Notes under the pieces: model-generated
Databases searched by the model: none
Told to the model about the DNA's origin: nothing
What the model saw: only the letters and a program-made list of their open reading frames with translations
Virus genome (UHGV): UHGV-1710001
Source of the DNA: a virus
DNA: 45,026 nt
Direction: 5' to 3' (one strand)
Shown: piece after piece, positions 3,878 through 45,026 of the stretch
How the letters are laid out: the number at the start of each line of letters is the position of its first letter
How positions within the stretch are numbered: the stretch's first letter is position 1
Position numbers and translations under genes: made by a program

Positions 3878-4129
3878 GTGTCAGATCGAAATATAGCAGC
3901 TAAAAGCCAGGAAGAGCGAGACAAGGTGAACGTAGACCTTGCCGCCAGCGGCGTTGCTTACAAAGAACGGCTGAATATACCTGTGATTGCAGAGCAGGTG
4001 GCTCGTGAGCAACCGGAAAACCTGCGCGCCTATTTCATGGAACGGCTACGGCACTACCGGCAGTTAAGCCTCCAGTTGCCAAAAGGGAGCGATCCGGTGT
4101 ATCAGAACGAGGATGCACCAAAAAAATAA
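3878..4129 (+). CDS. hot: DNA polymerase III theta-subunit (HolE) homolog
   Basis: 83-aa ORF with GTG start after CTGGAGG RBS; segment [33 protein letters not shown] closely matches recalled E. coli HolE ([27 protein letters not shown]). Confidence 0.7.
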
Positions 4130-4214
4130 CGGCAAGATGGGGGAGAAATGTGATTAGCCCCCAGCGTGGCGCGCCTACAAACCCCGCTTTCACAAACTAT
4201 GCCTTTTCAATGTA

Positions 4215-4234
4215 TACTGTATGAATAAACAGTA
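4215..4234. promoter_or_regulatory. LexA (SOS) box upstream of humD
   Basis: TACTGTATGAATAAACAGTA matches CTGT-N8-ACAG with consensus flanks TACTGT...ACAGTA; lies about 20 bp upstream of the humD start. Confidence 0.7.
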
Positions 4235-4252
4235 TCATTGAGGTAAAACGCT

Positions 4253-4642
4253 ATGGGCTTCCCTTCTCCTGCGGCGGATTATGTTGAAAGCCGAATTTCT
4301 CTTGATCAGCAGATAATTAGACATCCTTCAGCGACCTACTTCATGCGGGCAGCTGATAGCCATCACCGTGAGGGAATATTGCAGGGAGCTTTGCTGGTGG
4401 TTGATTCCTCGCTTACTCCGGTTGATGGTTCTCTGCTTGTGTGCGCTATGGAGGGTGAATATCGCATAAAGAGATACAGGAAGTATCCGCGCCAGCACCT
4501 GGAGGACTTAAGCACCGGGAAGAAAGAGGCGTTACCAGTAGATGACGATGGATACACGGGCAGCAATGCTGTTTTTGGTGTGATCACTCATGTCATCAAT
4601 GATGCCCGAAGTGGGGAGTTTGATGATTGTCCGGTTATTTAA
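4253..4642 (+). CDS. humD: UmuD-like S24 peptidase / translesion-synthesis accessory protein
   Basis: 129-aa ORF with LexA/UmuD-type C-terminal domain; preceded by a LexA box as in P1 humD. Confidence 0.75.
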   Translation: MGFPSPAADYVESRISLDQQIIRHPSATYFMRAADSHHREGILQGALLVVDSSLTPVDGSLLVCAMEGEYRIKRYRKYPRQHLEDLSTGKKEALPVDDDGYTGSNAVFGVITHVINDARSGEFDDCPVI

Positions 4643-4683
4643 GCTGCAAAGGGCTGGTGCTTTATACCTGTGAAGTTTATAAT

Positions 4684-4707
4684 TGTGTACACATAACGAG
4701 TACATGA
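4684..4707. promoter_or_regulatory. phd-doc operator palindromes
   Basis: Perfect 10-bp palindrome TGTGTACACA followed by a GAGTACATG half-site directly upstream of phd. Confidence 0.5.
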
Positions 4708-4714
4708 GGTGTTT

Positions 4715-4936
4715 ATGCAATCCATTAACTTCCGTACCGCGCGCGGCAACCTTTCTGAAGTGCTCAACAATGTTGAAGCCGGGGAAGAGGTTGAAATCAC
4801 CCGCAGAGGCCGTGAGCCAGCAGTAATTGTCAGCAAGGCTACTTTTGAAGCCTACAAAAAAGCGGCGCTGGATGCTGAATTTGCATCCCTGTTTGACACC
4901 CTGGACTCCACCAACAAGGAACTGGTTAACCGATAA
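4715..4936 (+). CDS. phd: Phd antitoxin (prevent host death)
   Basis: 73-aa product [39 protein letters not shown]... matches recalled P1 Phd; stop overlaps the doc start by 1 nt (TAATG). Confidence 0.9.
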
Positions 4937-5316
4937 TGAGGCATATATCACCGGAAGAACTTATTGCGCTTCATGATGCGAATATAAACCGCTACGGCGG
5001 CCTGCCGGGAATGTCTGATCCGGGTAGGGCAGAGGCCATTATCGGGAGAGTTCAGGCCAGAGTTGCCTACGAAGAGATCACCGACCTTTTCGAAGTCTCC
5101 GCCACCTACCTGGTGGCTACAGCGAGAGGGCATATATTCAATGATGCCAATAAGCGTACCGCGCTAAACAGTGCGCTGCTATTTCTACGCCGTAACGGGG
5201 TGCAGGTATTTGATTCACCTGAACTGGCAGACCTTACCGTAGGGACTGCGACAGGCGAGATATCTGTATCTACTGTCGCCGCCACGTTACGTAGATTGTA
5301 TGGTTCTGCGGAGTAG
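4936..5316 (+). CDS. doc: Doc toxin (Fic-fold kinase, death on curing)
   Basis: 126-aa product [39 protein letters not shown]... matches recalled P1 Doc; classic phd-doc arrangement. Confidence 0.9.
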
Positions 5317-5320
5317 ATTA

Positions 5321-5500
5321 ATGGCACGCAAATACAACAAATTGTCCCGTGAAGCGTTAAAGATGCTTCTTGATGGCGTGAGTCGCCGCAAGGTAAAGCA
5401 ATACCTGGTTGGTAAGCAAATTGGAGTCAGGACCGCTATTGCTGTGTTATGCCGTCAGGAAATGGTTGTGCTTAAACAGAGAATGCCGGGCAGCAGATAA
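5321..5500 (+). CDS. small basic protein downstream of doc (possible P1 pdcA equivalent)
   Basis: ATG 5321 just after the doc stop with GGAG 8 nt upstream; 59 aa, Lys/Arg-rich; pdcA assignment is by position only. Confidence 0.35.
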   Translation: MARKYNKLSREALKMLLDGVSRRKVKQYLVGKQIGVRTAIAVLCRQEMVVLKQRMPGSR

Positions 5501-5527
5501 AGCCCAATCAGTGATTAAAGGTGTGAT

Positions 5528-6571
5528 GTGAAAGCCGTAATTACTCCCTTTGTACAGAAAGAGCTTGGCCTCGCCACGTTCAAAGTGGATCAGGAGGTCA
5601 GAAAGCTGGTGGAGGCTGGCCGTAAATTTATTATGGAGCCGGTGCCGCGTGAGTTAATCGAGCACATGGAAGACGGCCTCGTTGTTACCGAGCAAACCAT
5701 GGCAACAAATGAGGCGTTGCAGCCGTTTTTTAACAGCGATGAACTGTTTCGCCGTATTGGTGGAATTGACTCGCTGGTGGCGTGGTTGCGCAGGAAAGAG
5801 GGGCAATGCCAGGCCGCAGATCGTAGCTGGTGTGACAACCATATTGTCCACGCAGAACGAGACAATAGCGCGGTGTTGTTGTGCTGGCATCACGATAACC
5901 ATTACCGGATGCGTGGTTTTAATGAGCTGAAAGAAACGCTGCACAATAATCGCGTTAACTGGATACTGGATGTCGCCCGTCAGGAAATGGGCCTTTCAAA
6001 TAGCCATGATTTAAGTATTCAGGAGCTGTGCTGGTGGGCTTTCATGCGCAACATGATGCACCTGATGCCGGAAGAAGTCTGCCGCATATCAATAAATAAG
6101 ATGAAGGCTACTCCGCAGGATAGCGGACCTCTGAAAGAGGCGGATATTCGCCCGTATGACGATCGCGCTACAGCATATGTTCAGATGATGGAAGAACGCG
6201 CCGCGCCGATGCGTGCAAAAGTATGCCCTGTGGATGTTGACTCCGACCCAGGTATGGCGCATTTCAAAATACCAAAACTTCAATCGCTAAAATTGCCCGA
6301 GTACATGGACTTTGTGGCTTCCCGTCCATGCTGTGGCTGTGGAGCTGCGGGAGCTGGCGCTCACATTACGCCTTATATCGTTCGTCATAGTCGATTATGC
6401 GCGCATGACATTTATGCTATTCCTCTGTGCCAGTCATGCCAGCGTGATATTGAGCGTGACCGCGATAATTGGGAGAAGACGCACGGTAGGCTGGCGATGC
6501 ATCAACGATTGTTCTTTGATTACGCGCTTGGAGTCGGCGCTATCACAAGTCACTCGTCGAGCGTTAGATAA
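5528..6571 (+). CDS. hypothetical Cys/His-rich protein (possible P1 pdcB equivalent)
   Basis: 347-aa ORF with GTG start; C-terminal cluster CCGCG...[15 protein letters not shown] and His-rich segment [26 protein letters not shown] suggest metal binding. Confidence 0.5.
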
Positions 6572-9895: not shown

Positions 9896-10026
9896 TGTTT
9901 TTTAGCTACCGATGCTACATTGAACCTGACCTCTTGCGCCTTGTGGCATTTTCGGTTTATGCTTATCAGGCACCTCATTAAAACGGGTGCCGGGATTGAG
10001 ACCCCGGATAATGCAAAAGGCGACAC

Positions 10027-10049
10027 AGACGCCAAAAGCGTCTTTTTTT
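10027..10049 (+). terminator. intrinsic terminator-like hairpin plus T-run
   Basis: AGACGC-CAAAA-GCGTCT stem-loop followed by TTTTTTT. Confidence 0.45.
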
Positions 10050-10084
10050 GTGTCATGCCATCGCACAGCCATACGTAGCGTTTA

Positions 10085-10210
10085 GCTCAGAGATCAATGG
10101 TAGTGCTGGCTGGGCTGCCGAAAGGCAGGCCGGTTCCCTTTTGCGCCGGTAGTCTCAACCCAGTCAGTGCTACCGCCATTGAGATTGAGACCTCACGCGG
10201 TAGCTCCTTA
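10085..10210 (+). ncRNA. structured RNA region, candidate c4-like antisense RNA and target
   Basis: Extended imperfect inverted repeats (TCAATGGTAGTGCTGGCTGGG at about 10094-10114 against CCCAGTCAGTGCTACCGCCATTGA at about 10159-10182) and a GAAA-capped hairpin CTGCC-GAAA-GGCAG, directly upstream of a small ORF coupled to ant. Confidence 0.3.
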
Positions 10211-44003: not shown

Positions 44004-44072
44004 AAGTTCCCTCCTACGTTGTCAGGAGGTAATGGTATGCAAAGTAACTTCTCAACCGGTCATGTTGCTTGA

Positions 44073-44104
44073 CATCCTCCACGTCCTTTAGAGCGTGGAG
44101 GATG
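44073..44104. other. perfect 11-bp stem hairpin immediately 5' of the GC-rich element
   Basis: CATCCTCCACG-(10-nt loop)-CGTGGAGGATG; one nucleotide separates it from the GTGCG at 44106. Confidence 0.7.
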
Positions 44105-44105
44105 T

Positions 44106-45026
44106 GTGCGCCCAGCATGGGCGCGATCTTGGAGGTGAAAGCCCTCCCGCGAGCTGACCACAGCGAGCGAAATGAAGTGCAACTGCGTGAGGGCGACCGG
44201 GCGTGGGGAGGAAGCACGGAATGAACCCGTGAGCCGATGAACGAGAATCGGATATGAGGCGCGATGGAGCAAGGCGAGCAGGCACATCACTGCGAAGCTT
44301 TCGTGGTCAAGTCGAAGTCGCGCAGATCCGACGGTTGTGCGGGGAAGGATCGCGTTCTTACCTGGGGAGTTCTCGCCTCATGCCTGAAAGGGCAACGTCG
44401 TAAGACGGAGCGAGAAGTCAGCAGAGGCCGTTGTAGTCAGGACTCCGACGAAGGGCCGAACGAGAAGGAAAGCCAGAAGATATGACTCTTGACAGGACAT
44501 TGCGTCAGAAGCCGGGGAAGCCCGGTACGGACCCGCATGCCGGGTGGTGTGGCAGGGGCGCAGCCCTTGTGCTCCCCCCTATGCCGATCAAGCAGAACAT
44601 TGTGCTGGGCCTCTGACGCAGCTCCTTGATGGTCTTGGCATCGTGCTTAAGTGGATTGGTGTCGTCCCTGATAGGATCATGGAGGCAGAATGAAACTCAA
44701 AAATCCGGGATAGCACGCAAAACAGGCTGCACAAAAAGCGCAGGTTGCGTAGGAGTGAAATCCCGCTCCCAAAAAATGGTGCAGAAGTTGCGGCAGTGGT
44801 CATCCGACGCACTGGAAAATAACAAACCCGCCGTGACCAGAATCGGAGGCCTGAGGGAGTGACCGAAAAACCGGACAACCCAGGCAGCAAATACCCGCTG
44901 GATGAGGCATGGTTCCGGCAGATAATACCGAAAACCGCCAGACACACTGGATAATCAGTAGAAATAATCCATTAAAGTTATTATAATAATTGGTCACATT
45001 ATTATATTATGCTGAACAATAGAAAT
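44106..45026 (+). mobile_element. GC-rich structured element with group II intron-like 5' end (truncated by window edge or degenerate)
   Basis: Begins GTGCGCCCAGCATGGGCG, matching the GUGYG 5' consensus and resembling the Ll.LtrB intron start GTGCGCCCAGATAGGG; about 870 bp of GC-rich sequence with many short helices and no convincing ORF, then AT-rich sequence to the window end; no domain V seen in the window. Confidence 0.35.

Follow-up and report, generated by a model that had tools for sequence, protein, structure and literature searches.

Near the right edge of UHGV virus genome UHGV-1710001, just upstream of the lydA promoter region, a perfect hairpin is followed by a GC-rich, structured sequence that bears no annotated gene. 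This locus raises the question of what the GC-rich sequence is, where it begins and ends, how it came to lie behind a hairpin, and whether it is still active. Throughout, the window refers to the whole stretch of DNA that was analysed, 45,026 nucleotides long. Our reading, to which we assign a probability of about 0.8, is that the sequence is a decayed, internally deleted class C (IIC) group II intron that was reverse-spliced into the solo right-end hairpin of an insertion sequence (IS) in one lineage of P1-like phage-plasmids.

Boundaries and class of the insert

The elements that define the locus are as follows.

44032 to 44050, minus strand: late promoter LPdar of the lydA-lydB-hdf-darA operon, transferred by alignment from P1 (NC_005856, 31212-31230) and given for context only
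44072 to 44105, plus strand: target hairpin, which forms the 5' exon, with a 13-bp stem and an 8-nt loop
44106 to 44588, plus strand: class C group II intron with an internal deletion, now 483 nt long, starting with GTGCG and ending with GAT, delimited by the empty site, Rfam and full-length homology
44187 to 44357, plus strand: domain I core, matched by Rfam model RF02001
44375 to 44456, plus strand: match to Rfam model RF01998
44589 to 45026, plus strand: non-coding spacer of 438 bp, not part of the intron, 94% identical to the intron-free plasmid L008 with indels of 1-2 nt

The boundaries are set by L008 (NZ_CP033848), an intron-free sister plasmid in which the lydA-side sequence and the acetyltransferase-side sequence are both as in the window. 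Its empty site runs uninterrupted from GCGTGGAGGATGT into CAAGCAGAACATTG, joining GGATGT to CAAGCAG, and its counterpart in the window reads GGATGT followed by GTGCG and, at the far end, TATGCCGAT followed by CAAGCAGAACATTG. Because the empty site reads straight through, the insert is exactly positions 44106 to 44588. The target is not duplicated, which is what reverse splicing would be expected to give. The GC content is 0.613 within the insert, 0.531 from 44589 to 44940 and 0.244 from 44941 to 45026, with 0.503 for the window as a whole; the initial annotation, which gave the GC-rich element an extent of about 870 bp, had merged the intron with the spacer behind it. It had also expected the intron-encoded protein and domains V and VI to lie beyond the window. 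Instead, domains V and VI occupy 44517-44588, where an internal deletion has fused them to the start of the protein ORF, and the next gene, which starts just past the window end, encodes a serine acetyltransferase and not an intron protein. Since both intron ends are inside the window, nothing intronic lies beyond 45026.

The insert is not conserved P1 backbone. Homology to P1 ends at 44070, right before the hairpin, at a point where P1 itself continues into lydC, cin and the invertible C segment, and a megablast search of 44040-45026 against 50,697 phage records gave no match. The spacer to the right of the insert holds two ORFs, of 119 aa on the minus strand and 78 aa on the plus strand, for which Pfam returned nothing and which frameshifting indels relative to L008 argue against as genes. 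A search for distant relatives of the spacer gave a single match of 83 nt, annotated as serine acetyltransferase in its record.

Within the insert, two Rfam models match on the plus strand, and these are the sole intron matches across the whole window. RF02001 (group-II-D1D4-3) aligns to 44187-44357 over all 170 positions with 96.9 bits (E=3.7e-20; gathering score, 32), and RF01998 (group-II-D1D4-1) aligns to 44375-44456 over the full 84-position model with 41.6 bits (gathering score, 35). With both models above their gathering scores, the proposed likeness to group II introns goes far beyond chance. The 5' end that had been compared with the GUGYG consensus is GTGCG at 44106-44110 and falls exactly on the empty-site boundary. 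Class C introns are characterized by an AGGAA bulge, by a CGC triad in domain V, whose short distal stem has 2 bp fewer than that of IIA and IIB introns, and by an upstream stem-loop (PMC1702495). The window has AGGAA at 44209-44213, aligned to the invariant AGGAA of RF02001, and the upstream stem-loop; the CGC triad and the short distal stem are present in a full-length copy.

That copy, L007, is located at 4029-5860 of an E. coli MFDS1022581 chromosomal sequence, is 1832 nt long and carries a 456-aa ltrA gene. The window element is 98% identical to its two ends: the first 420 nt differ at 8 positions, and the last 63 nt (44526-44588) correspond to the last 63 nt of L007. Pfam recognizes RVT_1 and GIIM domains in the L007 protein but no endonuclease (HNH) domain. 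It is nearest to the GsI-IIC reverse transcriptase (6ar1; E=8e-129 over residues 48-455 of 456) and also matches the E. rectale IIC maturase (3.5e-92); its other best solved relatives are the R. intestinalis and E. rectale IIC RT domains, whereas matches to the IIB protein T.el4h (2e-42) and the IIA protein LtrA (6.5e-38) are far weaker. Folded with RNAfold, L007 domain V is a 32-nt hairpin with the CGC triad, a 3-bp distal stem and a 2-nt bulge. A Ralstonia relative (L010) has an identical 5' end and domain V and lies directly behind GGGACCGCCGGCGCGGTCCC and a run of seven T residues, a textbook terminator. Proteobacterial relatives in Sinorhizobium, Ralstonia, Burkholderia and Azospirillum also match the 3' part of the element, at 44520-44598. 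The parent protein and the position of the Ralstonia relative both support the class proposed at the outset, and the insert at 44106-44588 is a bacterial class C group II intron.

Two further analyses had no bearing on this assignment. The domain V/VI model RF00029 has no match in the window even at E values up to 10. This absence does not count against an intron: the intact full-length introns L007 and L010 are likewise unmatched, so the silence of RF00029 is uninformative for this intron lineage. Folding of the whole element with RNAfold gave a z of -2.0 and was left out of the domain assignment because the group II fold was not reproduced; domains V and VI were assigned by homology and single-sequence folding.

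The target hairpin and its origin in an IS right end

Recognition of the insertion site involves three short elements in addition to the hairpin itself.

44101 to 44105, plus strand: candidate IBS1, GATGT, the 5 nt with which the 5' exon ends, able to pair with ACATC at 44284-44288
44284 to 44288, plus strand: EBS1 candidate ACATC in the 8-nt terminal loop GCACATCA, the loop being placed by the RF02001 alignment
44589 to 44592, plus strand: CAAG, the final 4 nt of the IS200/IS605 right end, defined by the divergence point of L016 and L017

The hairpin arms, CATCCTCCACG (44073-44083) and CGTGGAGGATG (44094-44104), are perfectly complementary, which verifies the 11-bp stem first described, and RNAfold lengthens the stem to 13 pairs by adding A44072-T44105 and an inner U-G pair. 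The fold at 44072-44105 has an energy of -25.5 kcal/mol, compared with a shuffle mean of -12.2 (z = -5.25), and was equaled or bettered by 0 of 200 shuffles. One nucleotide, T44105, stands between the 11-bp stem and the intron, which opens with GTGCGCCCAGCATGGGCG from 44106, again as described. The initial annotation went on to see here the habit of class C introns of inserting just 3' of a terminator-like stem-loop. The intron is indeed of class C and lies directly 3' of a stem-loop, but the stem-loop is not terminator-like, because it has no T run. At the empty site it is flanked by TCAAGCAG and TCAAGCAAC, a terminator scan of 44072-44105 called none on either strand, and the absence of a T run on both strands rules out a rho-independent terminator. 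Weak Rfam matches to miRNA and sRNA families on the hairpin and on domain VI were put down to chance.

Judged by its sequence, the target hairpin is the terminal 32 nt of the right end of an IS200/IS605-family (InsQ/TnpB) insertion sequence. From 44078 onward, the window hairpin is identical to the right-end hairpin of such an element. The empty-site hairpin of 33 nt, which differs from the window hairpin at a single loop position, is 100% identical in one independent IS copy (L016) and identical at 32 of the 33 positions in another (L017), and both of these hairpins lie 12 nt 3' of InsQ/TnpB genes in unrelated places. The two copies diverge immediately past GGATGTCAAG, which is therefore the transposon end, and the intron is inserted 4 nt inside it. 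No tnpB gene adjoins the hairpin in the window, so the hairpin there is a solo right-end remnant. Just before these 32 IS-derived nt, the P1-like backbone has CTTGACATCC, which repeats the IS end in inverted orientation, and at the empty site the two together form a 17-bp perfect palindrome.

The same setting is found around other copies of the intron. All four examined copies with all or most of the protein gene, namely L007, a second chromosome with an identical match, L019 (where the gene is broken into two ORFs) and plasmid pHum4b (L003), are in a genuine IS right end in the order GGATGT, intron, CAAx. The hairpin with 5' fragments of the intron also occurs on two F-type plasmids (L005 and L006). 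The end of the 5' exon is identical at every other copy compared, and the first nucleotide of the 3' exon is C at all intron copies, with C44589 as the candidate IBS3. The RF02001 alignment puts the ACATC loop where EBS1 would be expected. The target was probably recognized by its stem-loop, by pairing of GAUGU (IBS1) with ACAUC (EBS1) over 5 bp, and by a C as IBS3. Lack of an EBS2-IBS2 pairing is a further trait of class C introns.

We propose that the history of the locus began with a full-length class C intron, encoding an RT-maturase without an endonuclease domain, that would normally have homed to the right-end hairpin of IS200/IS605 (TnpB) elements. The recipient would have been a solo hairpin between LPdar and the serine acetyltransferase module in one P1-like phage-plasmid lineage. 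There, guided by the stem-loop together with IBS1 and IBS3, the intron ribonucleoprotein would have reverse-spliced into the bond joining T44105 to C44589, a step that we infer from the precise boundaries and the established behavior of class C introns. The IS origin of the hairpin, its presence with intron 5' fragments on the F-type plasmids and the break in P1 homology exactly at the hairpin would also suit a different course, in which hairpin and intron piece came together by recombination from an intron-bearing IS200/IS605 fragment and the "empty" plasmids arose by secondary loss. We regard this course as very improbable: the empty site is nucleotide-exact at both ends and has its 17-bp palindrome restored without error, and the right-hand spacer, at 94% identity, is common to occupied and empty plasmids. 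Because of the exactness of the empty site at both ends, retrohoming is far likelier than a precise loss at the DNA level.

The internal deletion and the damage to domain V

The 3' part of the insert is made up of four overlapping or adjacent features.

44482 to 44523, plus strand: remnant of the intron protein ORF, ATG and first 14 codons (MTLDRTLRQKPGKP), within the ORF at 44482-44616; the L007 protein starts with MTPDRTLRQKPGKPGRIV
44517 to 44548, plus strand: crippled domain V, with ACC changed to GAA at the 5' end and G changed to A at 44527, breaking 3 of 13 pairs
44520 to 44525, plus strand: deletion junction, a GCCCGG microhomology common to ORF codons 13-15 and the domain V 5' strand
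44551 to 44588, plus strand: domain VI and the 3' end, with GGCA at 44551-44554 facing TGCC at 44582-44585 and A44581 as the candidate bulged branch point

Relative to L007, about 1349 nt are missing between two copies of GCCCGG. In L007, the first copy is in ORF codons 13-15, where GGGGAAGCCCGG is followed by GCGCATC, and the second is in the 5' strand of domain V, where GAACCGCCCGG is followed by TGCGGACCC. The deletion took the RT/maturase ORF beyond its 14th codon and, from the ribozyme, the J4/5 linker, the 3' half (3' strand) of domain IV and the opening nucleotides of domain V. Of the RT-maturase gene, the window retains 14 codons only, and the 44-aa ORF at 44482-44616 consists of these codons running on into the non-coding sequence of domains V and VI, in keeping with the earlier statement that the region has no credible long ORF. 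Since the protein gene is gone after codon 14 and both intron ends are kept, the element is an ORF-less derivative, one of the two forms that the initial annotation had considered; the other, an intact element, does not fit, as domain V is damaged and the element looks dead. In the history proposed above, the loss of about 1.35 kb between the GCCCGG repeats would have followed insertion and may have come about by template jumping during cDNA synthesis or by later slipped or illegitimate recombination.

The damage to domain V is of two kinds. At the junction, the CGC triad has become AGC, with the A facing a G. Away from the junction, G44527A breaks a distal pair, and every relic copy reads GGTACGG where every full-length copy reads GGTGCGG. 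The canonical domain V fold has an energy of -10.8 kcal/mol in the window versus -22.1 kcal/mol in the full-length intron, and its pair probabilities are 0-0.1 versus 0.62-1.0, with 12 of the 13 full-length pairs at or above 0.93. In the predicted fold, a new hairpin, CCGGGGAAGCCCGG, takes up the 5' strand. Seven basal pairs survive. Because of these losses, the window copy is a damaged derivative and not an intact class C member. In class C introns, domain VI has a bulged branch-point A 7-8 nt from a 3' end of the form AY. The pairing of domain VI was read by inspection: the candidate A44581 lies at a distance of 8 nt, the terminal dinucleotide is AU, and the domain is homologous to the 3' ends of L007, L003 and L010, although RNAfold favors another pairing in the window copy.

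After the deletion, the 483-nt element would have gathered point changes, one of them breaking the further pair in domain V. Compared with full-length L007 and the partial copies L003 and L004, the window is unique at 6 of the 8 differences in the 5' 420 nt. Its scores with RF02001 and RF01998 (96.9 and 41.6 bits) compare with 104.1 and 46.8 for the best-preserved relic, L014, and 103.6 and 46.8 for L007, from which it falls short by 6.7 and 5.2 bits; other relic copies likewise reach 46.8 with RF01998. The substitutions differ from relic to relic, with a C-to-T change at intron position 7 in L014 and a G-to-A change in the hairpin of L013, and copies with such differing changes show a pattern of drift, not constraint.

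Given the modeled state of domain V, the element has most likely lost the ability to splice or move. Preservation is nevertheless good, at 98% identity to the full-length intron, in domain VI, at the 5' end, in EBS1 and across most of domain I, and this would also fit a young element that has not yet decayed. A residue of hydrolytic splicing is unlikely but conceivable, because the junction has recreated an AGC triad, which is usual outside class C, and seven basal pairs are kept. ORF-less introns of cyanobacteria and archaea splice or move with a maturase supplied in trans, and the start of the ORF region is known in other introns to contain a high-affinity maturase binding site. The 483-nt RNA could be active in the same manner, spliced or mobilized by the maturase of a full-length copy, since it keeps both ends, EBS1, an intact domain I core, the start of the ORF region and, through the junction, an AGC triad, and since one relic (L014) equals the full-length intron on RF02001. 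We consider such activity improbable. An RNA with 3 of 13 domain V pairs lost and the 5' strand of that domain predicted to be captured elsewhere, with the domain IV 3' strand and J4/5 gone, does not have complete domains I-VI, and derived substitutions have fallen on positions conserved in the Rfam models. The identity as a class C intron, the exact boundaries, the deletion, the damage to domain V, the single location and the source of the target hairpin are shown directly, whereas we infer in what order the events took place, how the deletion arose and that activity was lost.

Distribution and significance of the relic

The 987 bp from 44040 to 45026 recur at 97-100% identity in 35 PLSDB plasmids, almost all of them IncY or P1-like E. 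coli plasmids. The deletion junction is present in three IMG/VR contigs and one metagenome contig, all with identical P1-like flanks, and in none of the GTDB species representatives. From these sequences, the deletion form appears to go back to one event with no later movement. Among 5426 complete E. coli genomes, the lydA upstream region of P1 type occurs in 474 and the contiguous empty site in 3. At least 80% of 44060-44530 is matched by 34 of the 5426; among the matches listed, 17 of 19 have a P1-like flank, with full coverage from 44060, and 2 of 19 are full-length chromosomal copies, a proportion from which we estimate about 31 occupied P1-like sites. PGAP annotates nothing in the 483-bp stretch, either in the approximately 35 PLSDB plasmids or in the approximately 31 complete E. 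coli genomes. Between ygiV and parC, 1358 of the 5426 genomes, K-12 DH5alpha included, have a fragment of the same intron family that is truncated at its 5' end and about 240 nt long.

The full protein gene was counted in only 3 of the 5426 complete E. coli genomes. This scarcity of a helper, together with the confinement of the relic copies to one site, argues further against an RNA mobilized in trans. Among genomes that match the intron's 5' part, the median copy number is one and the maximum 2; a few genomes do carry two 5'-region copies, so occasional help in trans may occur. In the history we favor, the relic would have been inherited passively and would have spread solely with its host replicon. 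Carried along by a successful element, it is about ten times as common in E. coli as the live intron.

Such a frequency could also mean that the relic was taken up as a structured spacer, insulating LPdar from the acetyltransferase module or driving or attenuating acetyltransferase transcription. Of about 34 hairpin-bearing members of the lineage in complete E. coli genomes, about 31 carry it and 3 have the empty site, and outward promoters are documented for IIC-attC introns (PMC3001079). Clonal descent accounts equally for the high frequency, however, and the gene arrangement is unchanged in intron-free relatives. The scan found no promoter-like or terminator-like site inside 44106-44588; all promoter-like sites are downstream, at 44939-44987 (one at 44959-44987), in AT-rich DNA before the serine acetyltransferase gene. 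Because substitutions also vary between copies, we give a spacer function hardly any weight at all.

The window element shares with the class C introns B.h.I1 of Bacillus halodurans, O.i.I1 of Oceanobacillus iheyensis and GsI-IIC of Geobacillus stearothermophilus the GUGCG start, the compact ribozyme, the AGGAA bulge, the position directly after a stem-loop and a short IBS1 pairing. Its full-length parent also shares their domain V CGC triad and short distal stem and has an RT-maturase without an endonuclease, nearest to that of GsI-IIC. The window copy differs from them in having no protein gene, no domain IV 3' half and only part of domain V; its target is an IS right-end hairpin without a T run and not a rho-independent terminator, and its IBS1-EBS1 pairing extends to up to 5 bp and not 3-4. 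With the ORF-less group II introns of Thermosynechococcus and Methanosarcina it has in common a ribozyme without a protein gene and with both ends present. The known functional ORF-less introns have domains I-VI intact, are present at several different sites and have a helper protein alongside them, whereas the window element has a clipped domain V, a single site and a helper that is almost never present.

An apparent specialization on the recombination hairpin of another mobile element, in place of terminators, is shared with the IIC-attC introns of integrons (PMC3001079); here, the target is an IS200/IS605 right end and not attC, and no outward promoter was found. Like truncated group II introns such as the ygiV-parC fragment, the window element is a non-autonomous, vertically inherited leftover of retrohoming, but it is an internal deletion with both ends and not the usual 5' truncation. 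Bacterial genomes commonly contain truncated or ORF-less copies of group II introns, and the relic is a new, unannotated example of this ordinary kind of genomic fossil. In the literature on group II introns in P1-like phage-plasmids, we found only an unrelated integron-borne maturase gene and no account of the window relic.

Taken together, these results describe a real but ordinary and probably inactive intron relic. It explains an unannotated 483-bp stretch, records the insertion of a group II intron in a phage-plasmid, and serves as a lineage marker for the P1-like branch in which lydC-cin and the invertible C segment have been replaced by an acetyltransferase module. The more interesting lead concerns its parent, since the live intron was always inside the right end of a TnpB-carrying IS. 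In the literature on class C introns at IS605 ends, only HNH-type introns in cyanobacterial IS605 elements were found. We raise tentatively, as an idea much more likely wrong than right, that the parent belongs to a IIC lineage specialized on the TnpB right-end hairpin of IS200/IS605 elements, and that the P1-like relic was an off-target event, perhaps with residual ribozyme activity. If this is true, the insertion would fall between the omega-RNA scaffold and its guide, and splicing would either be tied to the making of the guide RNA or interfere with it, a group II analog of the conflict seen in group I "IStrons".

Empty target and neighboring phage regions

Without the intron, the target is a perfect 17-bp palindrome, GCTTGACATCCTCCACG / CGTGGAGGATGTCAAGC, as seen when window positions 44066-44105 and 44589-44605 are joined and at the empty site of the intron-free sister plasmid NZ_CP033848 (L008:5005-5065). 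The left arm of the palindrome repeats the IS200/IS605 end in inverted orientation and starts exactly where phage P1 homology stops (44070).

The spacer downstream of the relic contains two weak terminator-like sites on the minus strand, facing the lydA operon (44727-44743 and 44871-44883), which is not an excess over the 1.6 expected from shuffles. P1 lydC, cin, and the invertible C segment are missing from the window's P1-like lineage, and in their place is a serine acetyltransferase gene of low GC content (L001:6988-7533 in the sequence covering the region past the window end; the window side is 44941-45026) that is convergent to the tail fibre assembly gene and overlaps it. An extra macro-domain gene is present in the tail fibre cluster of NZ_CP033848. 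A function in modifying the host surface is possible. Elsewhere in the window, at 9970-10180, a C4 antisense RNA (75 bits) adjoins isrK (59 bits), a pair consistent with the P1 immI immunity region.

Related intron fragments in E. coli

Behind variants of the relic's target hairpin, 5' fragments of a sister intron (91% identical) occur on F-type E. coli plasmids, near sopA and in ETEC plasmids. A ~240-nt 5'-truncated fragment of the relic's intron family occurs in 1,358 of 5,426 complete E. coli genomes, K-12 among them.

Intron fragments in E. coli loci
L005:4001-4213, F-type plasmid, sister intron 5' fragment
L006:4001-4262, F-type plasmid, sister intron 5' fragment
L018:2001-2235, E. coli DH5alpha, 5'-truncated fragment between ygiV and parC

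The ygiV-parC fragment consists of the last part of the protein ORF with domains V and VI, terminates at CTATGCCGAT/CAAG (the slash marks the intron boundary), and in DH5alpha carries no annotated feature. The L006 locus also holds a second, different group II intron (5499-5645, RF02012, 112.9 bits).

Introns within TnpB element ends

In some P1-like relatives, an intact InsQ/TnpB insertion sequence adjoins ddrA (L008:55-1263, and L014, the best-preserved relic copy, where it lies on the minus strand and its right-end hairpin ends at about position 1158 in the reverse complement). The right-end hairpin of this element (GGATGT/CACG) offers the same intron a vacant target; no second right-end hairpin of InsQ/TnpB type is present in the window.

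In the E. coli MFDS1022581 chromosome (L007:3170-5860), a copy with a split protein gene (L019:979-3840), and plasmid pHum4b (L003:4029-5850), the same class C intron interrupts the right end of an InsQ/TnpB element of the IS200/IS605 family, 4 nt in from the terminus. All examined copies of this intron with the whole or most of the protein gene share this position, GGATGT/intron/CAAG. A short way upstream of it in L007 is a weak RAGATH-18 match (3915-3958, 29.5 bits). The insertion point is where the omega-RNA scaffold would meet the guide, and because the intron sits at this joint, production of guided omega-RNA might require intron splicing.
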